Source: Vulcanimicrobiales bacterium (GTDB lineage: Bacteria; Vulcanimicrobiota; Vulcanimicrobiia; Vulcanimicrobiales; Vulcanimicrobiaceae). From it: a stretch of DNA of 64,000 bases. The position numbers were made by a program, and so were the translations under genes. Every line of letters starts with the position of its first letter. Position 1 is the stretch's first letter. The notes below the pieces were generated by a model. The model did not search any database. It was not told the DNA's origin and saw only the letters and a program-made list of their open reading frames with translations. The stretch spans positions 32,001 to 96,000 of the forward strand of contig JBBRLI010000001.1 in the NCBI GenBank assembly GCA_038231455.1, in the 5' to 3' direction. This document shows positions 2,450 to 13,128 of the stretch, piece after piece.

Positions 2450-2534
2450 AGCTCGCGCGACCATTTCCGCTCGAGAAACGCGATAATCGCATCCGTACCC
2501 GAGAAAAATTCGGGAGCGGTGGGCGTGAGGTCAT
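2446..2534 (-). pseudogene. Remnant of a DUF1348 (NTF2-like) gene
   Basis: ATG at 2534 reads MTSRPPLP. An adjacent frame then reads EFFSGTDAIIAFLERKWSREL. Both are DUF1348-like blocks; the intervening part and the 3' half are missing. Confidence 0.65.
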
Positions 2535-2596
2535 GCCGCCTGAACCGGGACCGGTTGCGAAAGATGCGCCCGACCCTCGAAGCGGAAACCTCTGGG

Positions 2597-3088
2597 ATGA
2601 TTGCCATTTGGCTCGGCCTCGCGATCGCGGTTGCAAACGCCAACCGCGCGCACACGATCGCCCGCGCCGATGTGGGAACCATCGTCGTGCATCACGGCGC
2701 CGCATGCTTCTCGGTTCAGAACGCGCGCCTCTTACCCGCGGCCATGCTCGTCGTCGTTTCGCCTCAAACGTCGCGTCCCGTCGGGCACGCTACGATCGTC
2801 GGTCCGCGCGCGGCTCGCGCCGAGCAATTCGATCGCGGCGCCACCGGATATGCCGTGCACGTCGTCGGGATGGCGAATGGAACGATCGCGATCGGGTTGA
2901 CAACGCGGGCCGCGAACCTTGGCGATGCTCGGGCAACGGCGTGCACCAGCTCCGAGGGCGTCCACCTGAATATTTGGGCGGGTCGGCCCAAAGCATCAAC
3001 ACGCCTCTGGCACGCGTATACATACCTGGGATACGACGTCGAGCCGACCTGCGCGCAGAGTGAGATGGGCGAATTCGAAGGAACGTAA
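2597..3088 (+). CDS. Secreted hypothetical protein
   Basis: Signal-like N-terminus MIAIWLGLAIAVA; conserved-looking C-terminal block CTSSEGVH...LWHAYTYLGYDVEPTC. Confidence 0.6.
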   Translation: MIAIWLGLAIAVANANRAHTIARADVGTIVVHHGAACFSVQNARLLPAAMLVVVSPQTSRPVGHATIVGPRAARAEQFDRGATGYAVHVVGMANGTIAIGLTTRAANLGDARATACTSSEGVHLNIWAGRPKASTRLWHAYTYLGYDVEPTCAQSEMGEFEGT

Positions 3089-3176
3089 TTCCACCCACGC
3101 GTCGACGCGACGGAAAGAGTTTTCATCAGAAAGTGGAATCCGATGCAATGAATAGAGCGCTTTGCGGAGGAAATCG

Positions 3177-5108
3177 GTGAAAAACGATGCTGAGGGTGTC
3201 AAACGGCGTTCCTTTTTAGCGGGTATCGCAACCGCGGCAAGCGCTGCTGCGACCGCCGGCGCCAAGCCCGCTCACGCAGCGGTCGCCGCCCCCTTAAAAC
3301 GCGGGCCGCTCTCGCCGCGCGAGATTGCATTAGAGATGGATCCCGTGCCGGCGGTGACGGAGGGCGAACACGTCACGCGCGCCGGCTCGGACTATATGGT
3401 CGACGTCTTCAAGAGTCTGGGAATGACGTACATCGCCTCGATGCCGGGCTCCACGTTTCGCGGGATCCAAGAATCGTTCGTCAACTACGGCGGCAACACC
3501 AAGCCGGAGTGGATCACCGTGCTGCACGAAGAGATTTCGGGAGCGATGGCACACGGCTACGCAAAAGCCGCAGGGAAGCCGATGGCGATCATCGTGCACA
3601 ATACCGTCGGTCTTCAGCACGCCTCGATGGCACTCTACAACGCATGGGCCGACCGCGTGCCGATCTTCGTACTCGTCGGGAACGTCGCTGACGCCTCCAC
3701 CCGCAGGCCGGGTGCTGAGTGGAACCACTCGGCAATCGACATCGCAGAACTCGTGCGCGGCTACATCAAGTACGACGACTCGCCGGCTTCGCTCGTGCAT
3801 TTCCGCGAATCGGTTCAGCGGGCGTATTCGATCATGATGACGCCGCCGATGGGTGCGAGCATGATCGTCGTCGATGGAGATCTCGCCGAGACACCGATGC
3901 GTGGACCGGCACCGGCGATTCCCGTACGGCACGAAGTACGCGCACCGGTTGCCGATCCGCAGACGATAACGACACTCGCGACGATGCTGGTCAACGCGAG
4001 CGATCCCGTGCTCGTGAGCGGGCGACACGCACGCACCCCACAGGGGATGGCGAATCTCGTACGTCTTGCCGAGCTGTTGCAGGCGCCGACGATCGATCAA
4101 CTCGGCCGCATGAATTTCCCGACCGATCACTACCTGAACCAATCCTACAATCCAGCGGTGATTCGCTCGGCCGACGTCATCGTAAATTTGGAAAACGACA
4201 ATCTCTTCGGCGTCGTCGGCGACGTGCTCGATCATGTCGAGCGATCGACGCGCATGAAGATCAAGACCGGAACCAAGGTCGTCGATATCAATTCCGAACT
4301 GCTTGCCGGGGGCGGCAACTATCAAGATAAACAGCGCTACTTCTCACCCGATCTGTCCATCGCCGCCGATGCTGAGGCAACGTTGCCGCAACTCATCGCC
4401 GCCGTCGAAAGCGCGCTGACGAGTGAGCGCCGCGCGCAGAATACGGCGCGCGCGGAAAAATGGCGGAGTGCCTTTACCGCACGTCGGCTTGCCGACAAAG
4501 AAGATGCGGCCGTGGGCTGGGAGGGAACGCCGATCAGCGTACCGCGCATGTGCATGGAGATTTGGAATGCCATCGCGCACGAAGATTGGTCGCTCGTTTC
4601 GATGACGACGTTTCTGAGTGCGTGGCCGCAGCGGCTGTGGGATATGAATCAACACCACCAGTACATCGGCCACGCCGGAGGAGCAGGCGTCGGCTATCAA
4701 CTCGGCGCTGCGGTCGGAGCGGCGCTCGCAAATAAAGAGCGCGGTCGACTCTCCGTCAATATCGTCGGAGATGGCGAATTCAATTGCATGCCGGGCGCCC
4801 TGTGGACGCTCGCCCATCACCGCATACCGCTGCTCACCATCATCCACAATAACCGCGCATGGCATCAGGAACTGATGCACGTGACGCGCGTTGCCGACCG
4901 TCGCGATCGCAATCCCGCCGGGGCCTCGATCGGAACGACAATGGACGACCCCGCGATCGACTATGCCAAAGTCTCGCAGGGGTTCGGGGTGTACGCCGAA
5001 GGTCCGATCACCGATCCGTCGCGCCTTGCAGCGGCGATCGCGCGCGCCGTCAAAGTCGTCAAAGCGGGCCAACCGGCGTTGCTCGACGTCCTCACGCAGG
5101 GGAGATAA
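3177..5108 (+). CDS. Thiamine-diphosphate-dependent enzyme (acetolactate synthase/decarboxylase superfamily) with a twin-arginine signal
   Basis: GGAGG SD before GTG 3177; KRRSFL, h-region and AHA cleavage site; catalytic Glu motif LHEE; ThDP motif GDGEF...HNN. Confidence 0.85.
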   Translation: MKNDAEGVKRRSFLAGIATAASAAATAGAKPAHAAVAAPLKRGPLSPREIALEMDPVPAVTEGEHVTRAGSDYMVDVFKSLGMTYIASMPGSTFRGIQESFVNYGGNTKPEWITVLHEEISGAMAHGYAKAAGKPMAIIVHNTVGLQHASMALYNAWADRVPIFVLVGNVADASTRRPGAEWNHSAIDIAELVRGYIKYDDSPASLVHFRESVQRAYSIMMTPPMGASMIVVDGDLAETPMRGPAPAIPVRHEVRAPVADPQTITTLATMLVNASDPVLVSGRHARTPQGMANLVRLAELLQAPTIDQLGRMNFPTDHYLNQSYNPAVIRSADVIVNLENDNLFGVVGDVLDHVERSTRMKIKTGTKVVDINSELLAGGGNYQDKQRYFSPDLSIAADAEATLPQLIAAVESALTSERRAQNTARAEKWRSAFTARRLADKEDAAVGWEGTPISVPRMCMEIWNAIAHEDWSLVSMTTFLSAWPQRLWDMNQHHQYIGHAGGAGVGYQLGAAVGAALANKERGRLSVNIVGDGEFNCMPGALWTLAHHRIPLLTIIHNNRAWHQELMHVTRVADRRDRNPAGASIGTTMDDPAIDYAKVSQGFGVYAEGPITDPSRLAAAIARAVKVVKAGQPALLDVLTQGR

Positions 5109-5111
5109 GCG

Positions 5112-5726
5112 ATGCGCATCATGGGATTGTCCGCGCTCGGCGTACTCATCACCGCGATCGTGGCCTTCAGCGGTGCCGCACCTGCGGCCGATTCACCGGG
5201 GAAGACGCTCTTCTCCGTCAACGGCTGTACGCAGTGTCACGGCACGCTCGGGCAAGGAAACAAATCGGCCGGCGTGCGCCTCGCGCCGCATCCTCTTCCG
5301 TACGCGGCATTTGTGAGTCAGTTGCGCAAACCGCGCGGCGAGATGCCGCCATACAGCGCGCATCTCGTGAGCGATCGCGACGTAGCCGCGATGTATGCGT
5401 ATCTGGAATCGATTCATGACGGCAAAACGGCAGCGCAGATTCCGCTCCTCGCTGCGGTCGGATTCGGCAACGCCGGAAAGCCTTCGGCGCTCGACGGTCT
5501 CGCTGCGGGGCGCACGATTTTCGCGCAAAACTGCGCAAGCTGTCACGGTGCCGCGGGCGTTGGTGGCGGGCTCGGGCCTGCGCTCACCGGCGAGCGGACG
5601 CGCAAGAATCTCGCAGCGACGGTGGCGTTTATCAAGCATCCGGTCGCACCGATGCCCGCACTCTTCCCAAGCAAGCTCAGCGAACGCGATGTCGCAGACC
5701 TCGCAGCATACGTTCAATCGCTTTAA
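5112..5726 (+). CDS. Dihaem c-type cytochrome
   Basis: Sec signal peptide; CTQCH and CASCH, each followed by a Met-Pro distal ligand motif. Confidence 0.9.
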   Translation: MRIMGLSALGVLITAIVAFSGAAPAADSPGKTLFSVNGCTQCHGTLGQGNKSAGVRLAPHPLPYAAFVSQLRKPRGEMPPYSAHLVSDRDVAAMYAYLESIHDGKTAAQIPLLAAVGFGNAGKPSALDGLAAGRTIFAQNCASCHGAAGVGGGLGPALTGERTRKNLAATVAFIKHPVAPMPALFPSKLSERDVADLAAYVQSL

Positions 5727-5797: not shown

Positions 5798-5879
5798 TCG
5801 GCAGTGAATAGAAAGGCGAAGCCGAGCTGACGGCGCAGAAGCTCAGGAATCTTCTCCCCGACTTTCGATCGTGGGTCTT

Positions 5880-8057
5880 ATGCTGCTACGGTTTTTTGCG
5901 GTGATCGCGTGTGCTAGTGCGTTACTCTTCGTCTCTGCTTGCGGCGGTGGTGGCGGCGGTGGCGGCGGTGCGACCCCGCCGGTAACGTCGACGACGCCGA
6001 CGCCCACACCGACGGGAGGCCCCACAAGCACGCCAACTCCGGGCATCACCGCGACGCCTGTTCCGACGGCAACGCCAACATCGGGGGGCGTCCGATACAT
6101 TCTGCCGAGCGCGAGTCCCGCGGCTCTGAGTGCAATCACGGTCGATTCCGCGCCTCGCCCGCTCGCTGTAACGCTCGATGGAGCGACGCTCGGAACGACA
6201 CCGACGACCGCGACGCCGACGTATTCACGTTCCGCACACACGCTTACGATCACGGCACCCGGGTTGGCGCCCTACGTCATCACCCTCGCACAGACGGCAA
6301 ACGGCCCACGTTCCGTTTTCTACAATTCGCTGATCGACACCCAAGGGAGGATTGCATCGATCTCAACGTCGGCGAGTGCGCGCCGCACGATGAGCGTGGG
6401 TCGATTCACGCGCGGAGCGTTGCGACCGCGGTCCTCAATCGCTTCGCGACCGTCGTTTAGCGACCAACGTTTTGTCGTCCACTACGACCCCGTACAGATC
6501 GATGCGTCCCGCACGTTCGCGCAACTCGAAGCCGCGCACGGCGTGGTGCGTGCCGCAACGCTCGCTCAATCCGCCCGCGACGTGACGCGTGTCGTCACCG
6601 TCGGCGCGGGGACGCCGCTTGCGGGAGCGCTCGCATCACTTGCCCGCGAGCGCGGGGTCACGAGCGTCGATCGCGTCCGGCTGCGCTATCCACTCGCGCC
6701 GCCGCGTGGCCCCGTCTACCCGAACGACCCGTTCTACGCCCAAGGAGCGCAGTGGTATCTCGATGCGATCGATGCGCCCGATGCGTGGAGCTACGGTTTA
6801 GGAAAGGCGACCATTTCGATCGCCGTGATCGACACGGGATACGACGTCGCGCAAACCGAGGTCGCACCCGGTGTGACGTTCTCGGAAAAAATCGTCGGCG
6901 GAACCATTGACGCGGGCGCAAATGCCGCAAATGACACCGACGGCCACGGGACGTTCGCCGCGGGCGTCGCAAGCGCCCAGACCAATAACGCCAGCGGCTA
7001 TGCGGGCGTCGCGTATGGCGCGAGCCTGCAAGTCTACAAAGTGTTCACCGATTCTGCGACGCCGACGGCGGATTCCGCCGACGTCGCAGAAGCCATCCGC
7101 GAAGCGGTCGCGCACAAAGCGAGCCTGATTCTGCTCCCACTCGGCGGAACGTCCGATGCCGGGCCCGATCCGCTCGAACGCGACGCCGTCGCATTTGCCC
7201 TGGCATCGAACATCGCCGTCATCGCGCCCTCCGGCAACGAGGGTGCAACGACGCTCGACTATCCCGCCGGATACGATGGCGTGATCTCCGTTGGCTCGTC
7301 CGCGATCAACGACACGGCCTCACCGGGAAGTGCCTTTGGCGGCGGCAACTTCGAATATGTCCCGACGTACGCGAACACCGCACCGACCCTTGGACTCGTC
7401 GCACCCGGTGGCGATCTTGCAAGCGCGACCGATTCCGATGTCATTCACGGCATCCTTAATGCATATACCACAAGGCCACTTCCGGGTCTCCCGGCATGCC
7501 CCGCCGGCACCGCGCCCGCCTCGTGCAACGTCACGCTCAGCGGGACGTCGGCCGCCGCGTCGATCGTCGCCGGCGCAAGCGCCCTGTTGCTCGCGCAAAA
7601 TCCCGCGCTGACGCCCGCACAACTCAGCCAATTACTCGATTCAACCGCAGATGACATTAAAGACGCGCGGCAGGGTCATGGCCGACTCAATCTGCACGCT
7701 GCATCGGCCGCGCTTGCCGGCGATCTCACGCCGGTGCCGGGCCCCTCGCCGCCCACCTTTAATGCATTCGTCGCCTTTGCGTACAGGAATTCGGGCGGTA
7801 CGCAGCCGCAGATCATCGACATGAACTTTCCAACCGGCGTGCGCGTCAATACGGATGGCACGTTTCGCATCGCCGACATCCCCGCGGGCGCTGCGCCGTA
7901 CAAAATCGCAGTCTGGGCCGACGCCAACGGCAATGGCAGTATCGATGCCGGTGATTCGTTTGGCGTCGTCGCGGCGAACTGCGCGGCGAGCGGGCCGTGT
8001 AGCGGCGCAAATGCCATCAACGCAAAGCGCGTTGCTGCGGGATTCACCCTCCCCTGA
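5880..8057 (+). CDS. S8 (subtilisin-like) serine protease lipoprotein
   Basis: Lipobox VSA-C with poly-G and PT linker; catalytic triad motifs IDTG, DGHGT and SGTSAAA; oxyanion SGNE. Confidence 0.9.
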   Translation: MLLRFFAVIACASALLFVSACGGGGGGGGGATPPVTSTTPTPTPTGGPTSTPTPGITATPVPTATPTSGGVRYILPSASPAALSAITVDSAPRPLAVTLDGATLGTTPTTATPTYSRSAHTLTITAPGLAPYVITLAQTANGPRSVFYNSLIDTQGRIASISTSASARRTMSVGRFTRGALRPRSSIASRPSFSDQRFVVHYDPVQIDASRTFAQLEAAHGVVRAATLAQSARDVTRVVTVGAGTPLAGALASLARERGVTSVDRVRLRYPLAPPRGPVYPNDPFYAQGAQWYLDAIDAPDAWSYGLGKATISIAVIDTGYDVAQTEVAPGVTFSEKIVGGTIDAGANAANDTDGHGTFAAGVASAQTNNASGYAGVAYGASLQVYKVFTDSATPTADSADVAEAIREAVAHKASLILLPLGGTSDAGPDPLERDAVAFALASNIAVIAPSGNEGATTLDYPAGYDGVISVGSSAINDTASPGSAFGGGNFEYVPTYANTAPTLGLVAPGGDLASATDSDVIHGILNAYTTRPLPGLPACPAGTAPASCNVTLSGTSAAASIVAGASALLLAQNPALTPAQLSQLLDSTADDIKDARQGHGRLNLHAASAALAGDLTPVPGPSPPTFNAFVAFAYRNSGGTQPQIIDMNFPTGVRVNTDGTFRIADIPAGAAPYKIAVWADANGNGSIDAGDSFGVVAANCAASGPCSGANAINAKRVAAGFTLP

Positions 8058-10378
8058 TCCCATCACGCGCGCTCGCCCTGACCTTCCTTGCCGCGCTCGC
8101 GCCTCTGCGCGCGTCTGCTGCCGACGTACCCGGTGTCATCAGCGTCACGCAAATCTCGGCCACCCGCGCAGCGCAAGTCCTCCGCGATCTCTATCCGCAT
8201 GCAAACGTGCGGATCGACCGCTCGGCGAACGCCGTGATCGTCGTTGCATCCGAACGCGACCTTGCAGTGATGCGTGCTGTCGTCACGCAGCTGGACGTCA
8301 AGAGCCCGCTGGCGCGCGTCGCGCGTGCGATCCCACTGCACACCGTGCGTCCCTCGACACTCATCGACGAGCTCCACGTCCTCTATCCGTCGGCACGTGT
8401 CGTTGCCGCGCCGGGCGGTCACGCGCTCATCGTCGATGCGGCACCCGCCGACGCGCAAGAGATCGCGGCCCTGAGCGCCGCGATCGATACGCCCCCGCCG
8501 ACGCCGGTGAGCGCGCCGGCGCGCGCGACTGATGCATTGCGCATCACGCAAGCATCACCGACGGCGGTAGCGCGCGCGGTCGCGCAACTCGTTCCGACGG
8601 TCCATCTCGCGGTCGCCGGATCGAACGTCGTCTTTTCCGGCTCGGCGGATGATGTCGAACGGGCAAAGTCGCTCGCAGCGCGACTCGATACACCCGCTGC
8701 CGGCGTGCGCTATCCGGTCGTCTATCGCGCGCGCTACTACGACGCCACCTCGCTTGCCGCTCTGCTTAGCCGGTCGTTTCCGAACGCCAGCATCACCGTC
8801 GCGCGCGACGTCAATGCGCTCACAATCGATGCCACGAGTTCCGAGCAACGCCGTATTGCCGATGCCCTCGCGCAACTCGATACGGGACCATCTTCCTTGC
8901 CGGTTGCAGAACCGGGTACTGTCTCCGCTCCCGTTGCGGCGGGCAGCGGCACGTTTGCCGTCTATACGCTGCGCGCGGCGCTACCCGGCATCAACGGCGC
9001 CGCATCCACGAGCGCAAGCGACATCGCCACCACCGTTACGCAAGCGCTCGCGCAATCGGCGCCGGATTTGCGCATCACGGTATCCGCTAGTTCCAATCAG
9101 CTCGTTCTCTCCGGCAGCCCGCTCTCGCTGCAGCTCGCGCGCAGTCTCATCGATCAGCTCGACGTCGCGCAAAAGCTCGTCGTGCTCGACACGCAAGTGC
9201 TTGAGATCGATGAAAACGTCTCGAAGAATCTCGGGCTCTCGTTTACGAATCCGCTCATCTCGACGAACTATAGTGAAGTCTCGCCGCCGAATGACGCAAA
9301 CGGCAACCCACAGCGGCTGCTGGGCCTGGGTCCGCTCTCGCGAACGCCACTGAGTTTAGGTTTCACGCTCAACCTTGCGATCTCGCAAGGGCACGGACGC
9401 GTGCTTGCCAACCCGCGGATCACGACGATCTCCGGTCGCACGGCAACGATTCGTGCGGGCGATACGATCTCGATCCAAACGACTGCCGGCGGCGGCGCCG
9501 GGACGGTCGCAACGACGCAACTGCAGACATTTCAAACCGGCGTCACGCTCGACATCACGCCGATCGTCAACGCCGATAACTTCATCAGCGTCACGTTGCA
9601 CCCAACCGTCAACAGCAACCTCGGTCTCTTGGCGGGAATTCCGCAAATTTCGACACGCGATACCCAAACGACCGTCGCCCTGCGCGAAGACGAAACGCTC
9701 ATTATCGGCGGACTCATTCAAGAGAATGCGACGCGCACCGATACGAAGATTCCCGTACTCGGCGATCTCCCGCTACTTGGTAAAATCTTCCGCGACGGTC
9801 AAGTCAATACAACGCGCAACGAACTGATCATTACGGTCACGCCACATATTATCGATCCGAGCCGCCTGCGCGTCTCGCCGACAAATTCGGCGCCCCAAGC
9901 ACGACCGACACTTCCGCCGACGACCGTCGTTCCGGCAGAGCGTCCGGCGGTCTCTGCCGTTCCTCCGACGCGCACGATTGCAACGCCCCAGCCGGCCGCG
10001 ATAAATCCCGCACCGACGGTACCGAGCGTCGGCGGGAGCGGCTACGTGTACGGCGCTGTCCCGCCTTCGCTCGTGCTGGGAGCCGCCGAGCTACCGAAGA
10101 TCTTTTTCGTCGCGCTCACACCCTCGCTGCCCTGGGTCGGCAAGACGATCTCGGTCACGGCAATAACATCGACGAACGTACAGCGGCTTTCGCTCACGTA
10201 CGGCGGCGGGTTTACAACGCAGCTTTCGCAGTCAACGTCGGGCCGTTGGCAGGCCACGTTCGCATTTCCGCTCGCCGCCTCCGCGGCACTCGGCAGCGAT
10301 CCAAGCGTCACGCTGATCGCAACGCGCGCGGACCTCGCTGCAACGGCACGCGTCGTCGTGCCGCTCGTCAGCCCGTGA
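8054..10378 (+). CDS. Outer-membrane secretin (GspD/PilQ family) with several N domains; probable CTG start
   Basis: Secretin motifs VLANPRITTISG, GVTLDITP, IIGGLI and KIPVLGDLPLLG. The frame extends upstream of the tracked GTG 8207 to a signal peptide starting at CTG 8054. Confidence 0.85.
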   Translation: MIPSRALALTFLAALAPLRASAADVPGVISVTQISATRAAQVLRDLYPHANVRIDRSANAVIVVASERDLAVMRAVVTQLDVKSPLARVARAIPLHTVRPSTLIDELHVLYPSARVVAAPGGHALIVDAAPADAQEIAALSAAIDTPPPTPVSAPARATDALRITQASPTAVARAVAQLVPTVHLAVAGSNVVFSGSADDVERAKSLAARLDTPAAGVRYPVVYRARYYDATSLAALLSRSFPNASITVARDVNALTIDATSSEQRRIADALAQLDTGPSSLPVAEPGTVSAPVAAGSGTFAVYTLRAALPGINGAASTSASDIATTVTQALAQSAPDLRITVSASSNQLVLSGSPLSLQLARSLIDQLDVAQKLVVLDTQVLEIDENVSKNLGLSFTNPLISTNYSEVSPPNDANGNPQRLLGLGPLSRTPLSLGFTLNLAISQGHGRVLANPRITTISGRTATIRAGDTISIQTTAGGGAGTVATTQLQTFQTGVTLDITPIVNADNFISVTLHPTVNSNLGLLAGIPQISTRDTQTTVALREDETLIIGGLIQENATRTDTKIPVLGDLPLLGKIFRDGQVNTTRNELIITVTPHIIDPSRLRVSPTNSAPQARPTLPPTTVVPAERPAVSAVPPTRTIATPQPAAINPAPTVPSVGGSGYVYGAVPPSLVLGAAELPKIFFVALTPSLPWVGKTISVTAITSTNVQRLSLTYGGGFTTQLSQSTSGRWQATFAFPLAASAALGSDPSVTLIATRADLAATARVVVPLVSP

Positions 10379-11001: not shown

Positions 11002-11097
11002 CGGATGATTTAAAACACGCTTCACCCGAAGGTGTGGGAGTGCGCGAGCGCAACCGTAACCAGAGCGGGGAAGCAACCTTCGATCGGGAGTTTTTTG

Positions 11098-13128
11098 ATG
11101 AAGCGTGCCGGTTTTGCGTGTGCCGTTCTAGCGACGCTCCTCCTCGCGCATCCGGGAAGTGCGACCGCGGCGACGACCAATACCATGTTCGTCGCGCGCA
11201 CGCTAAGCGGGTCGCTCGGAACCGATGCGGGTATCGATGTCACGGCGGGCGGCGTCGTTCGCATCAGCGCGAGCGGAACGCTGCGCACGTCGGGCGGCCC
11301 TTGCGGTCCCAATCTCACCCCCGACGGTTGCGCGCGTGCATTTTCACTGACACGCGAGGCAAATGCTCCCGTTGGTATGCTGCTGGTCGCGTTTGTCGAT
11401 CGCGGCGGACGCCTCATTTCATCCTGGACTCCGGTTGGGACGTTCGGCAGTGTCGCCGTCCCGCGCGGTGCGGCGCGCATGATGCTGCGCATCAACGGAC
11501 TTGCCGAGGGGACCTATGGCGCCTACAAAGTGGTCGCGAGTCTGGGCCGCAATCCACAGGACCTCGCAACGACCGGCGGCGTGCGCCGATTGCTTTCGGA
11601 AGCGCGCCAAGTCGGGACGGGCAACTCAATCCTCACGCGTAAAGTTGTGCAAAATGCACTGCGGCGATTCGGCTTTTCCGATACGCCGGCCGCCGTCACG
11701 GCCGTGTATTCGGGCGGCCTGCAAAATTGGTTTGCCGCGCAGCTGAATCCAGACACGATCGCCGATGGCGCACTGGCCGGCTATCTCACAGCAGAGCCCA
11801 ACAACACCGGCTTGCTCCAGAGGAACGACAACAACATTCTCTGCGGCTACGGCACGCTGATGACCGAGCGTCAAGTCTCATCGAAAAAGCAGTTACTCGA
11901 AAAACTGACGATGTACTGGCTGGAACACTTTTCAATCAATGGCTCGAGCACGCTCCCGGGTCCGATCGGCGAATACAACACGATCCTTCGAGCCGACGCA
12001 CTTGGGAATTTTGCTAAGCTCATCTCGGATATCGCACTTCAGCCAGCGATGCTCGACTGGCTCGGCAACAACAACAATAACGGCTCGAATCCCATCACGA
12101 ATCCGCCGAACCAAAACTTCGGTCGCGAACTCATGCAGCTCTACATCATGGGGACCGATCAGCTGAACATGGACGGCACGCAGATCTTCGATGGCACCGG
12201 TGCCGTGAAGCAAAACTACACGCAAACCGACGTCGACAACGTGTCACTCGCCCTCACGGGCTATTCATGGACCGTGCCCAATCCATTTCCGCTCGGGTTG
12301 CCGCGCAATCCGACGACGAACCCCGTCACGTTCACGGCACGCAATCATGGCAAAGGGCCTTACGCGATCATCGGCCAGACCGTCACCGATCCCGGTGATT
12401 CAACGGTCGTCACAAGCGTTATCAACTCACTCGTAGCAAATCCCTCAACCGCACCCTTTCAAGCGCGGGAAATGCTCCAACGCCTGGTGACCGAGAATCC
12501 ATCACCCGCCTACGTCAGTCGGATCGCGAGCGTCTGGGTGGCAAACGCAAACGACCCGCGCCAGATCGCAAATGTCGTCGCCGCAATCGCCGCAGACCCC
12601 GAATTCATCTCCGCGATGTCCCAACCGATGCTCAAGGAGACAACCGAATTCTACATCGACGCGATCCGAGCACTCGGCGGTGCGGCCGCAAATCCCGTGA
12701 CGGGCACCGATCTTGCTCCGCTCCAAGGCGTGCGCGCGGATCTTGAAGGAACGCAACAACTGCTCTACGATCCCGAGACCGTCTTCGGGTTCTACACGGT
12801 CGGCGACAAAGGCCCGGTCCTCAGCAACGGCCTCTTGCTCTCGCGCTACAACATGGCAGCTCGCGTCTCAAACGCGCTCCAGCTCGGCGCGCTCCCCAGT
12901 CTCAGCTCGACGCAAGGTTGCGGCGGAGCCAATAAATTCAACGTCGATGCGAGCAATCTGAGCGCGATGAACGGTATGCAACTCGCTGGCTACTTACTCG
13001 ACGCGCTGGTCGACGGCGGAAATCCCGAACTGCGCGCGCTGGTCACCAACTACATCAACAACGATCCCAAACGAGCCGCCGGTGCGGTGTACATCATCAT
13101 GTCCTCCCCGGAATACGAGGTCAACTAA
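11098..13128 (+). CDS. DUF1800-family protein with an extra N-terminal beta domain
   Basis: Signal peptide; QLLEKLTMYWLEHF, ALGNF, PAMLDWL, NQNFGRELMQL and terminal SPEY motifs. Confidence 0.85.
   Translation: MKRAGFACAVLATLLLAHPGSATAATTNTMFVARTLSGSLGTDAGIDVTAGGVVRISASGTLRTSGGPCGPNLTPDGCARAFSLTREANAPVGMLLVAFVDRGGRLISSWTPVGTFGSVAVPRGAARMMLRINGLAEGTYGAYKVVASLGRNPQDLATTGGVRRLLSEARQVGTGNSILTRKVVQNALRRFGFSDTPAAVTAVYSGGLQNWFAAQLNPDTIADGALAGYLTAEPNNTGLLQRNDNNILCGYGTLMTERQVSSKKQLLEKLTMYWLEHFSINGSSTLPGPIGEYNTILRADALGNFAKLISDIALQPAMLDWLGNNNNNGSNPITNPPNQNFGRELMQLYIMGTDQLNMDGTQIFDGTGAVKQNYTQTDVDNVSLALTGYSWTVPNPFPLGLPRNPTTNPVTFTARNHGKGPYAIIGQTVTDPGDSTVVTSVINSLVANPSTAPFQAREMLQRLVTENPSPAYVSRIASVWVANANDPRQIANVVAAIAADPEFISAMSQPMLKETTEFYIDAIRALGGAAANPVTGTDLAPLQGVRADLEGTQQLLYDPETVFGFYTVGDKGPVLSNGLLLSRYNMAARVSNALQLGALPSLSSTQGCGGANKFNVDASNLSAMNGMQLAGYLLDALVDGGNPELRALVTNYINNDPKRAAGAVYIIMSSPEYEVN

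Follow-up and report, generated by a model that had tools for sequence, protein, structure and literature searches.

Benzoylformate decarboxylase (BFDC) is a cytoplasmic, non-oxidative ThDP enzyme. Like the other ThDP enzymes of its superfamily it is a dimer whose active site forms between the two protomers. Pyruvate oxidase and PoxB are also cytoplasmic, or peripheral to the inside of the membrane; they contain FAD and reduce O2 or a quinone, not a c-type cytochrome. To our knowledge, FAD serves as mediator in every oxidising enzyme described from this superfamily (pyruvate oxidase, PoxB), and ThDP enzymes are generally placed in the cytoplasm or in organelles. Flavin-free one-electron oxidation of the ThDP intermediate, via a ThDP radical, is found in pyruvate:ferredoxin oxidoreductase (PFOR) and oxalate oxidoreductase. 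These two cytoplasmic, oxygen-sensitive enzymes belong to another ThDP superfamily and pass electrons to [4Fe-4S] clusters. One-electron acceptors, ferricyanide for example, readily oxidise ThDP enamines.

The window, the whole stretch of 64,000 nucleotides of Vulcanimicrobiales DNA analysed here, contains a ThDP enzyme gene with a twin-arginine leader, followed directly by a cytochrome c gene. We propose that the pair is a two-subunit periplasmic ThDP-dependent substrate:cytochrome c oxidoreductase, probably an oxidative 2-oxo-acid decarboxylase, and we give this reading a probability of roughly 0.65. The features of the locus are the following.

3166..3170, + strand: Shine-Dalgarno sequence GGAGG, 6 nt 5' of the GTG start (sequence read).
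3177..5108, + strand: ThDP enzyme gene, 643 aa, stop codon TAA at 5106-5108 (ORF, Pfam, NCBIfam).
3177..3278, + strand: putative Tat signal peptide, residues 1-34, with RR at 3204-3209, h-region AGIATAASAAATAG, AHA at 3270-3278 and predicted cleavage after A34 (sequence read, conservation).
3399..3734, + strand: PYR (N-terminal ThDP) domain, residues 75-186, with S92, the cofactor-activating E118 (3528-3530), H141 and H184 (Pfam, alignment).
3981..4409, + strand: middle domain, residues 269-411, with H318 at 4128-4130 (Pfam, alignment).
4632..5105, + strand: PP (C-terminal ThDP) domain, residues 486-643, with GDG-X24-NN at 4767-4853 and the clade-specific E565 and M567 (Pfam, conservation).
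5100..5111, + strand: gene junction, with GGGAGA at 5100-5105 (Shine-Dalgarno sequence for the cytochrome, within the last codons of the ThDP gene), TAA at 5106-5108, a 3-nt spacer and ATG at 5112 (sequence read).
5112..5726, + strand: gene of a dihaem class I cytochrome c, 204 aa, with a Sec-type signal at about residues 1-26 (ORF, Pfam, conservation).
5226-5240, + strand: haem 1 site CTQCH of the cytochrome, residues 39-43, with the ligand Met78 at 5343-5345 (motif).
5532-5546, + strand: haem 2 site CASCH of the cytochrome, residues 141-145, with the ligand Met181 at 5652-5654 (motif).

The ThDP enzyme is encoded in an open frame at 3162..5108 (+), in which we take the GTG at 3177 as the start. 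Its leader reads VKNDAEGVKRRSFLAGIATAASAAATAGAKPAHA, with AV after the predicted cut, and comprises KRRSFLAG, an Ala/Gly-rich h-region and AHA; the twin arginine falls on residues 10-11 and AHA on residues 32-34. The leader qualifies as a Tat signal when judged by the consensus S/T-R-R-x-F-L-K, the low hydrophobicity of the h-region and the presence of an AxA site. Across family genes, the 15 residues following the Tat motif have a mean hydropathy of 1.00, against an average of 2.36 for the signals of the partner cytochromes. In the AF2 model of the enzyme, pLDDT is below 50 at residues 1-44.

The leader is kept in 110 of the 120 closest proteins; a regular expression scored 111, one of which was discounted as a false match in a 481-aa fragment. 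Seven of the ten proteins without a match carry the same leader with one arginine replaced (RG, RS or WR), and the other three are N-terminally short or fragments. Among genome-derived family genes the leader is present in 87 of 89, the exceptions being one RK variant and one unaligned N-terminus, and an AxA site occurs in 82 of these 87. R10 and F13 do not vary among 90 family sequences. The RR leader described in the earlier note, KRRSFL followed by an h-region and AHA, is thus borne out by its conservation in relatives.

Were the RR stretch no functional Tat signal, or the true start a downstream ATG, the enzyme would be cytoplasmic. Beyond the RR motif, an ATG at about residue 54 (in 'EMDP'), 5' of the PYR domain, is the next in-frame start, and one arginine is lost in 7 of the 120 relatives. 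We nevertheless regard a cytoplasmic enzyme as very improbable. The leader is preserved in both sequence and register, and a Shine-Dalgarno sequence stands before GTG 3177. The long form starting at this codon is the real one, because homologues align from residue 3-10 on; the start 5' of the RR motif, assumed in the earlier note, therefore holds. Moreover, a cytoplasmic enzyme could not meet a cytochrome c that is exported by Sec and matured in the periplasm, and the look of a cytoplasmic form is that of a sister clade, described below, which has neither leader nor cytochrome. We infer from the sequence that the ThDP enzyme is probably exported folded via Tat.

The N-terminus of the cytochrome is a hydrophobic signal without twin arginine. 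Pfam Cytochrome_CBB3 (PF13442) matches the protein with 92 bits over two stretches, and Met-Pro is found at residues 78 and 181. The Sec-signal cytochrome with two CxxCH motifs and Met ligands, placed 3 bp 3' of the ThDP gene in the earlier note, is confirmed on reading the sequence. Residues G30, C39, C42, H43, M78 and P79 are invariant across 51 partner cytochromes. The layout of the junction suggests translational coupling of the two genes. A promoter and terminator scan at the locus gave no signal exceeding shuffled expectation. Among the sequencing runs listed for this DNA none is of RNA; the one DNA run listed may be its source.

The ThDP enzyme itself looks complete and catalytically competent, judging from its domains and conserved residues. 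Pfam finds TPP_enzyme_N (PF02776, 76.6 bits), TPP_enzyme_M (PF00205, 34.4 bits, against a cut-off of 30.4) and TPP_enzyme_C (PF02775, 78.5 bits), all above their cut-offs. The order PYR, middle, PP is that of the decarboxylase and POX-like ThDP superfamily. The AF2 model has a pLDDT of 87, and a Foldseek search with it returned at least 500 PDB matches; among the matches listed, all are ThDP enzymes. GDG-X24-NN occupies residues 531-559 (GDG 531-533, NN 558-559). D532, G533, N558 and N559 are invariant in 90 family sequences, and so are E118, H141 and H318.

An HMM-anchored scan of 80 loci and the window finds an ORF with CxxCH that starts at most 200 bp downstream, on the same strand, in 89 of 90 family ThDP genes. 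The single gene without it has 33 bp of contig remaining. The partner is monohaem in 63 cases and dihaem in 26. In a signal-less sister clade, 33-38% identical to the ThDP enzyme of the window, a downstream CxxCH occurs in 1 of 65 loci with room for it, and the RR expression matches 3 of 80. This clade shares with the window enzyme the domain order, a long linker helix and most catalytic residues. The leader and the cytochrome pairing persist across phyla and are missing from the sister clade, so their association is more than chance. The cytochrome is an obligate, essentially invariant neighbour of the leader-bearing ThDP enzyme, and the conservation of the gene pair on which the first reading of this DNA depended is thereby established.

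In nine loci the pair occurs in tandem, and cytochrome paralogues sort as the ThDP paralogues do in 18 of 18 comparisons, which are not independent of one another. The pair duplicates and diverges as one unit. Altogether, the two-gene module is found at 352 places among one-per-species genomes, and its carriers include cultured, non-pathogenic Paraburkholderia, Caballeronia and Sphingomonas, among them Paraburkholderia caffeinilytica, Caballeronia udeis and Sphingomonas koreensis.

These observations bear on a reading in which the enzyme is a non-redox periplasmic decarboxylase, lyase or carboligase, and the cytochrome is structural, or serves another enzyme and is merely co-transcribed. The nearest characterised relatives are indeed non-redox, and an aldehyde dehydrogenase gene found immediately upstream of the module in 6 Eremiobacterota loci is likewise compatible with a non-oxidative decarboxylase whose product is an aldehyde. 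Such a reading is improbable in view of the adjacency of the cytochrome in the family as against the sister clade, the co-divergence of ThDP and cytochrome paralogues, and the invariance of the haem ligands C39, C42, H43 and M78 in the 51 partners. The predicted interface described below is centred on the haem-1 domain, and we know of no parallel for a cytochrome kept across phyla without a redox role.

All-against-all clustering of neighbours (80 loci and the window) reveals no third conserved gene: only the ThDP gene and the cytochrome recur widely. The clustering counts them in 71 and 30 loci respectively, fewer than the HMM-anchored scan, since its greedy choice of ORFs drops genes that are small or overlapped. 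The clusters that follow are each specific to a lineage: a porin (9 loci), aldehyde dehydrogenase (7 loci), and ABC, solute-binding, LysR and MFS proteins (4-6 loci each). No neighbour gene among the module loci (80 and the window) names a substrate. Around the sister clade no cluster exceeds 8 of 80 loci, hence no clue to a substrate comes from there.

The active site can be compared with that of BFDC (MdlC, EC 4.1.1.7; PDB 1bfd, 4q9d, 6qsi, 7orx), whose ThDP fold has the same three domains. By sequence it is the top PDB match of the ThDP enzyme (E 1e-28 with the single protein, 7e-37 with a profile), at about 22% identity and with a Foldseek TM to target of 0.82-0.85. E47, H70 and H281 of BFDC align with E118, H141 and H318 of the window enzyme; S26 corresponds to S92 in a PGS motif and is matched by motif only. 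The pocket residues L110, A460 and F464 of BFDC, which we take to form its hydrophobic phenyl-ring pocket, align with H184, E565 and V569, and both H184 and E565 are invariant in the Tat-leader clade. Judged by this alignment the pocket of the ThDP enzyme is polar, and with H184 in place of L110 and E565 at A460 it would suit a small 2-oxo acid.

The same comparison helps to weigh another reaction with the same partners: a periplasmic ThDP enzyme with a cytochrome c acceptor that oxidises aldehydes directly, or that splits a 1,2-diketone or an acyloin and then oxidises the fragment left on ThDP. ThDP chemistry permits it, as known from the oxidative side reactions of decarboxylases and of transketolase with aldehydes or ketoses, and from cyclohexane-1,2-dione hydrolase. 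The aldehyde dehydrogenase gene that adjoins the module in 6 loci, and the carboligases and lyases among the relatives, point the same way. Set against these, the BFDC-type His pair and Ser that handle the substrate carboxylate are invariant, and the polar pocket (H184, E565) suits a small 2-oxo acid. We consider this reaction unlikely, though chemically sound, and prefer oxidative decarboxylation of a 2-oxo acid.

Modelling the two proteins together had been proposed in the earlier note. With one enzyme protomer folded, the complex prediction scores 0.85, and the best of 3 controls scores 0.00; of 80 solved complexes 58 attain that mark, as do 2 of 110 mismatched pairs. The runs share at least 73% of contacts, and the pLDDT of the partner is at least 79. 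On the cytochrome side, the predicted interface involves the haem-1 domain (residues 36-59, 76-85 and 104-124), which is universally conserved. On the enzyme side it involves residues 317-319 (the H318 loop), 429-464, 481-489, 563-583 and the C-terminus; the stretch 563-583 comes directly after the NN motif, beside E565 and M567. The model thus places the haem-1 domain against active-site elements of the enzyme. About 4 of 18 clade-specific invariant positions lie in the predicted interface, a mild enrichment that we do not take as support.

PDB sequence searches with either protein gave no ThDP-cytochrome complex among the matches listed, so the prediction is unlikely to be the recall of a solved one. 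Given that one protomer was folded and that the active site of such enzymes lies at the dimer interface, the modelled cytochrome could overlap in part with the position of the PYR domain of the second protomer.

The route of the electrons out of the active site may follow one of two paths. In the first, FAD bound by the middle domain, as it is in pyruvate oxidase and PoxB, would relay electrons from ThDP to haem c. The middle domain is present (34.4 bits, with the cut-off at 30.4), the top Foldseek match is the FAD-binding glyoxylate carboligase (TM 0.72-0.77), the known oxidases of the superfamily all use FAD, and Tat would carry a flavin-loaded protein just as well. This flavin-mediated path is nonetheless rather unlikely in our view. 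The stretch of the ThDP enzyme that best matches BFDC, residues 112-376, spans the middle domain, and the sequence of that domain is nearest to the flavin-free BFDC, an indirect hint. The NCBIfam models of FAD enzymes (pyruvate oxidase NF006377, 85.8 bits against a cut-off of 742; PoxB NF006591, 77.9 against 792; TIGR02720, 76.5 against 637.85; ALS models, at most 107) score below that of BFDC (NF005485, 168.7 against 493), itself under its cut-off. By sequence, the closest solved relative is the flavin-free BFDC; by fold, the closest are BFDC and glyoxylate carboligase. Finally, haem 1 is positioned beside elements of the ThDP site in the predicted complex.

The second path dispenses with flavin. 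A flavin-free ThDP:cytochrome c oxidoreductase would be a new class of respiratory dehydrogenase, in which a docked haem c oxidises the enamine directly via a ThDP radical, and with which soil bacteria of several phyla would burn small organic acids in the periplasm without uptake. We put this forward as a tentative proposal, at somewhat less than even odds; we know of no precedent for direct transfer from enamine to haem in this ThDP superfamily. Oxalate, glyoxylate or pyruvate as the acids burnt is speculation.

We now outline how the proposed oxidoreductase would operate. The ThDP enzyme would fold and take up ThDP and Mg in the cytoplasm, and leave folded via Tat, its leader being cut after AHA. 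The cytochrome would be exported unfolded through Sec and receive its haem in the periplasm, where the two proteins would join through the first haem domain. A small polar carbonyl substrate would bind at C2 of ThDP, most likely a 2-oxo acid that is then decarboxylated, or alternatively an aldehyde. The carbanion/enamine intermediate would escape protonation and be oxidised by haem 1 in two one-electron steps. As there is no CoA outside the cytoplasm, acyl-ThDP would be hydrolysed to a carboxylic acid. Electrons would continue to a haem-copper oxidase, in this genome via haem 2. We infer, in particular, complex formation in the cell, electron transfer, the type of reaction and the absence of flavin.

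The genome encodes the machinery that such a scheme would use: TatC (172.8 bits, above the cut-off), a CcsA-type cytochrome c assembly protein (Cytochrom_C_asm) and three haem-copper oxidases. It also encodes a secretin, which implies an outer membrane.

If the flavin-free reading is true, the enzyme would be the first of the known ThDP enzymes to act outside the cytoplasm, and the pair the first electron wire from ThDP to haem. With a Tat-exported ThDP enzyme wired to cytochrome c, ThDP would join PQQ, molybdopterin, flavin, haem and copper on the short list of cofactors of periplasmic dehydrogenases, with a new activity of the EC 1.2.2 type. Such an enzyme would also open a new route, in acidic soils and in peat, by which organic acids or aldehydes supply electrons to the respiratory chain. 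Two genes make up the whole module and it has cultured carriers, and the hypothesis is hence directly testable at the bench.

Public annotation conceals the module, naming its ThDP proteins 'acetolactate synthase large subunit' or 'thiamine pyrophosphate-binding protein'; the former name is probably wrong for the Tat-leader family. The best NCBIfam match of the window enzyme is PRK08327 (NF006203, 'thiamine pyrophosphate-requiring protein'), with 243.6 bits against a cut-off of 456. The same model gives 222-259 bits for other members of the Tat clade and 254-293 for the sister clade, all below 456, and neither the window enzyme nor the clade members or sister proteins score above the cut-off of any NCBIfam model. 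A search of the ESM Atlas with the ThDP enzyme returned generic 'thiamine pyrophosphate-binding protein' clusters only.

A search of the full text of open-access articles found no description of a ThDP enzyme that is exported or that works with cytochrome c. Two papers that it matched mention unrelated ThDP proteins in gene tables (PMC8880074, PMC12542648). The earlier note knew of no characterised example of this architecture, and none has emerged from full-text literature, NCBIfam or RefSeq naming.

Among described systems, BFDC resembles the window enzyme in fold and catalytic residues, and the Tat leader and obligate cytochrome c partner are what sets the window family apart from it. Pyruvate oxidase and PoxB, of the same superfamily, are closest in working: they decarboxylate a 2-oxo acid oxidatively and deliver its electrons to the respiratory chain, as we propose for the ThDP-cytochrome pair. 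PFOR and oxalate oxidoreductase showed no sequence relation to the ThDP enzyme in any search made.

A parallel in architecture comes from two-subunit periplasmic dehydrogenases that use cytochrome c: SorAB sulfite dehydrogenase, flavocytochrome c sulfide dehydrogenase (FccAB) and p-cresol methylhydroxylase (PCMH). Their catalytic cofactor is molybdopterin or covalent FAD, versus ThDP here, and the catalytic subunits are not homologous. The profile of the partner cytochrome matches the cytochrome subunit of PCMH (1dii_C, E 1.2e-8) as well as the cytochrome subunits of fructose and alcohol dehydrogenases, and NCBIfam SorU is a weak match. SorA and FccB are exported by Tat. Like the window pair, known here from its genes, each of these systems combines a cofactor-loaded catalytic subunit with an adjacent, separately exported small c-type cytochrome.

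The ThDP enzyme and its partner cytochrome are encoded one after the other in the window, with the following features.

3162-5108, forward strand: open frame of the ThDP enzyme
3177, forward strand: GTG start of the ThDP enzyme, six bases after GGAGG at 3166-3170
Enzyme leader, as read from the sequence: KRRSFLAG with its twin arginine, then an h-region rich in Ala, Gly and Thr, then AHA at residues 32-34
Enzyme residues 75-186: TPP_enzyme N domain (Pfam, 76.6 bits)
Enzyme residues 269-411: TPP_enzyme M domain (Pfam, 34.4 bits)
Enzyme residues 486-643: TPP_enzyme C domain (Pfam, 78.5 bits)
5106-5108, forward strand: TAA stop of the ThDP gene, followed by three bases and then the cytochrome ATG
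5112, forward strand: ATG start of the cytochrome gene, with the ribosome-binding site GGGAGA at 5100-5105

The enzyme counts 643 residues, matches all three Pfam ThDP-enzyme domains and begins with VKNDAEGVKRRSFLAGIATAASAAATAGAKPAHAAV (residues 1-36). The cytochrome, of 204 residues, starts with a hydrophobic signal lacking a twin arginine; its two haem motifs are CTQCH at 39-43 (haem 1) and CASCH at 141-145 (haem 2), with Met-Pro at 78 and 181; Pfam Cytochrome_CBB3 matches it in two stretches (92 bits). The earlier note had described the KRRSFL leader with its AHA and, 3 bp downstream, a cytochrome with a Sec-type signal, two CxxCH motifs and Met ligands; all these details proved correct on re-reading.

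A protein search over 5.8 billion proteins gave thousands of matches, the best 120 of which, nearly all 640-660 residues long, were examined for the leader. It is present with both arginines in 110 of them (111 by regular expression, P0101 being discounted as a false match in a 481-residue fragment). Seven of the remaining ten keep the leader with one arginine altered (P0006, P0007, P0009, P0010, P0025, P0034 and P0110); the other three (P0008, P0101 and P0115) are fragments or lack part of the N-terminus. The motif also occurs in 87 of 89 family genes taken from genomes, the exceptions being one RK and one unaligned N-terminus. Across 90 aligned family members R10 and F13 never vary, and R11 hardly does.

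The 15 residues past the motif have a mean Kyte-Doolittle hydropathy of 1.00 in the ThDP leaders, against an average of 2.36 for the most hydrophobic 12-residue stretch in the signals of their partner cytochromes. Tat signals are expected to be weakly and Sec signals strongly hydrophobic, and the two values match this contrast. Residues 1-44 and 55-63 of the enzyme are disordered in its AlphaFold2 model (pLDDT 87), the former as expected of a leader. An enzyme with such a conserved leader that is nevertheless not exported appears very improbable. The one-arginine variants (RG, RS, WR or RK), found in the seven relatives and at locus L005, leave the remainder of the leader intact; the Tat system may tolerate them, or they may be in transition to another export mode.

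The window's genome (3.7 Mb, 94% complete, one family copy) encodes TatC, a CcsA-type cytochrome c assembly protein and three haem-copper oxidases. A secretin in the window implies an outer membrane, hence a periplasm. It belongs to the flanking genes (2-646, 659-2449, 5871-8057, 8207-10378 and 11032-13128), whose products are envelope or exported proteins with no relation to the pair: a DUF1996 protein, a GH64 beta-1,3-glucanase with CBM6, an S8 subtilase bearing a PEGA domain and a Pro/Thr-rich linker, the secretin and a DUF1800 protein. The glucanase, the DUF1996 protein and the S8 peptidase give no hint of the pair's function. The roughly 700 bp 5' of the ThDP gene (2450-3160) hold open frames without a Pfam match, at 2519-3088 (forward strand) and 2764-3126 (reverse strand), and may be regulatory or contain a small gene that annotation has missed.

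Scanning one genome per species (185,579 species), we found 352 relatives and kept 80 loci. By record title, these include Eremiobacterota (Vulcanimicrobiota, Lustribacter), Limnocylindria and one MAG labelled Armatimonadota; Paraburkholderia, Caballeronia, Burkholderia and Herbaspirillum; and Sphingomonas, Caulobacteraceae, Rhizomicrobium, Micropepsaceae, Beijerinckiaceae, Xanthobacteraceae and others. Family genes were located by HMM and a CxxCH frame was then sought near each stop (90 genes, window included). In 89 of the 90 such a frame begins on the same strand no more than 200 bp downstream, in most cases overlapping or at most 15 bp away; the single gene without one has 33 bp of contig left. 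Monohaem partners (63, about 112-147 aa) outnumber dihaem ones (26, about 199-247 aa). All 51 aligned partners share one domain, with G30, C39, C42, H43, M78 and P79 invariant; particular lineages have added the second haem domain. The cytochrome is thus an obligate partner of the leader-bearing enzymes, the Tat clade. Both the leader and the gene pair, noted earlier at this one locus, are conserved among homologues.

In the window's phylum, the gene occurs in 2 of 151 sampled genomes at E 1e-150 or better, the window's genome included. This patchy spread, with few bearers in its own phylum yet others in several phyla, suggests horizontal transfer of a two-gene module.

In an exhaustive HMMER search of 1.84 billion cluster representatives, proteins with the leader extend to about 42-49% identity. 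A sister clade follows at 33-38% identity; its members, of 560-617 residues, are leaderless and align only from about query residue 68 onwards. We took 80 of its metagenome loci as a control set; the sister HMM outscores the Tat-clade HMM in all 80. A twin-arginine match in the upstream frame occurs in 3 of the 80. Downstream, 65 of these loci offer 400 bp or more of sequence, and one of the 65 has any CxxCH frame within 500 bp. On a Sinorhizobium plasmid, a copy of the sister type likewise lacks a leader, and no CxxCH frame lies within 4 kb of it; a Novosphingobium copy with 44% identity carries the leader and the frame. The two features thus go hand in hand, and ThDP enzymes of this branch do not pair with a cytochrome as a rule.

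Two or three ThDP-cytochrome pairs stand in tandem at nine loci, and such arrays are noted for L006, L007, L008, L011, L031, L045, L053, L054, L067 and L078. Cytochrome paralogues sort as the ThDP paralogues do in 18 of 18 between-locus comparisons; these are drawn from two lineages and do not count as independent. The pair has duplicated and diverged together, as one unit. The arrays run head to tail, in Eremiobacterota and Micropepsaceae-type loci, and their paralogues are 56-76% identical, which suggests several substrate specificities in one organism.

No third conserved gene was found among the neighbours at family loci, where the most recurrent others are lineage-specific: a porin at nine Burkholderiaceae loci, an aldehyde dehydrogenase directly upstream at six Eremiobacterota loci and farther off at one other, and solute-binding, ABC, LysR and MFS proteins at 4-6 loci each. 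The aldehyde dehydrogenase gene (Pfam Aldedh, 462 bits) ends about 10-60 bp from the ThDP start at L002, L003, L006, L007, L008 and L012; the window's own locus is without it. Plasmid-borne pairs occur in Caballeronia zhejiangensis (L087) and Burkholderia sp. SFA1 (L088). Directly upstream of these are genes for a Rieske-type oxygenase ferredoxin subunit, a PdxA-family dehydrogenase, an FAD reductase, an MFS transporter and a porin, surroundings that look like an aromatic-acid dioxygenase cluster.

We co-folded one protomer of the mature enzyme (60-643, 90-row alignment) with the mature cytochrome (27-204, 51-row alignment) and two haems. The complex scored 0.85, 0.85 and 0.80, and the best of three controls 0.00; the score mark is attained by 58 of 80 solved complexes against 2 of 110 mismatched pairs. 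No less than 73% of contacts recur between runs, and the partner's pLDDT is 79 or higher. Searches with either protein found no ThDP-cytochrome complex among the PDB matches listed, so the passing score is unlikely to recall a solved structure. The predicted cytochrome face is the universal haem-1 domain: 36-59 around CxxCH, 76-85 around Met78, and 104-124, which includes the nearly invariant L113. On the enzyme it comprises 317-319 (the H318 loop), 429-464 (a long linker helix and the following part), 481-489, 563-583 (directly past the NN of the ThDP motif, beside E565 and M567) and the C-terminus at 641-643. ThDP enzymes of this type form dimers and hold ThDP where the protomers meet, so some of the docking site might be the second protomer's. 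The model argues for binding through the haem-1 domain; beside it and the near-universal pairing, a non-redox enzyme with an idle cytochrome seems unlikely.

The ThDP motif, GDG-X24-NN, lies at residues 531-559. By sequence the closest solved proteins are benzoylformate decarboxylases (BFDCs). A HMMER alignment to the Pseudomonas putida BFDC matches E118, H141, H318 and N559 to E47, H70, H281 and N455, of which E47 is the cofactor-activating Glu and N455 a Mg ligand. All four are invariant in 90 family members. The BFDC pocket residues L110 and A460 are replaced by invariant H184 and E565. Fixed in the Tat clade and not in the sister clade are E565, M567, H548 and W448. As aligned, the active site is BFDC-like in its catalytic histidines, yet polar, and a small hydrophilic 2-oxo acid would fit better than an aromatic one. 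Aldehyde or diketone chemistry in place of 2-oxo-acid decarboxylation is a lesser possibility, at perhaps one chance in five.

By fold, glyoxylate carboligase and BFDCs are the closest solved proteins. Among NCBIfam models, FAD-dependent oxidases score lower than BFDC against the enzyme, and no NCBIfam model of any kind reaches its cut-off with the window protein, other clade members or sister proteins. The same enzyme working through a flavin is about as doubtful as the aldehyde or diketone chemistry.

From these gene-level facts we infer export, subunit binding, the reaction and an electron transfer that needs no flavin, which most likely combine as follows. ThDP would have to be bound in the cytoplasm and the folded enzyme exported via Tat; cytoplasmic loading of ThDP would explain Tat, as maturation of a c-type cytochrome outside would explain Sec. 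The subunits would meet in the periplasm. The enzyme would turn its substrate into the ThDP carbanion/enamine, and haem 1 would accept the two electrons singly; acyl-ThDP would then be hydrolysed and the electrons passed on to an oxidase.

The earlier note knew of no characterised example, and our search of full texts outside subscription journals and supplements likewise found no exported ThDP enzyme or ThDP-cytochrome c enzyme. RefSeq and GenBank call the two products 'thiamine pyrophosphate-binding protein' and 'c-type cytochrome' or 'hypothetical protein', the enzyme goes by 'acetolactate synthase large subunit' at JGI, and across the literature, these names and NCBIfam no member of the module is characterised. 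SorAB and flavocytochrome c likewise consist of two subunits that join in the periplasm. Measured against public knowledge, the module would newly unite two known designs: the ThDP oxidative decarboxylase, and the catalytic subunit that is exported by Tat and paired with a cytochrome c subunit.
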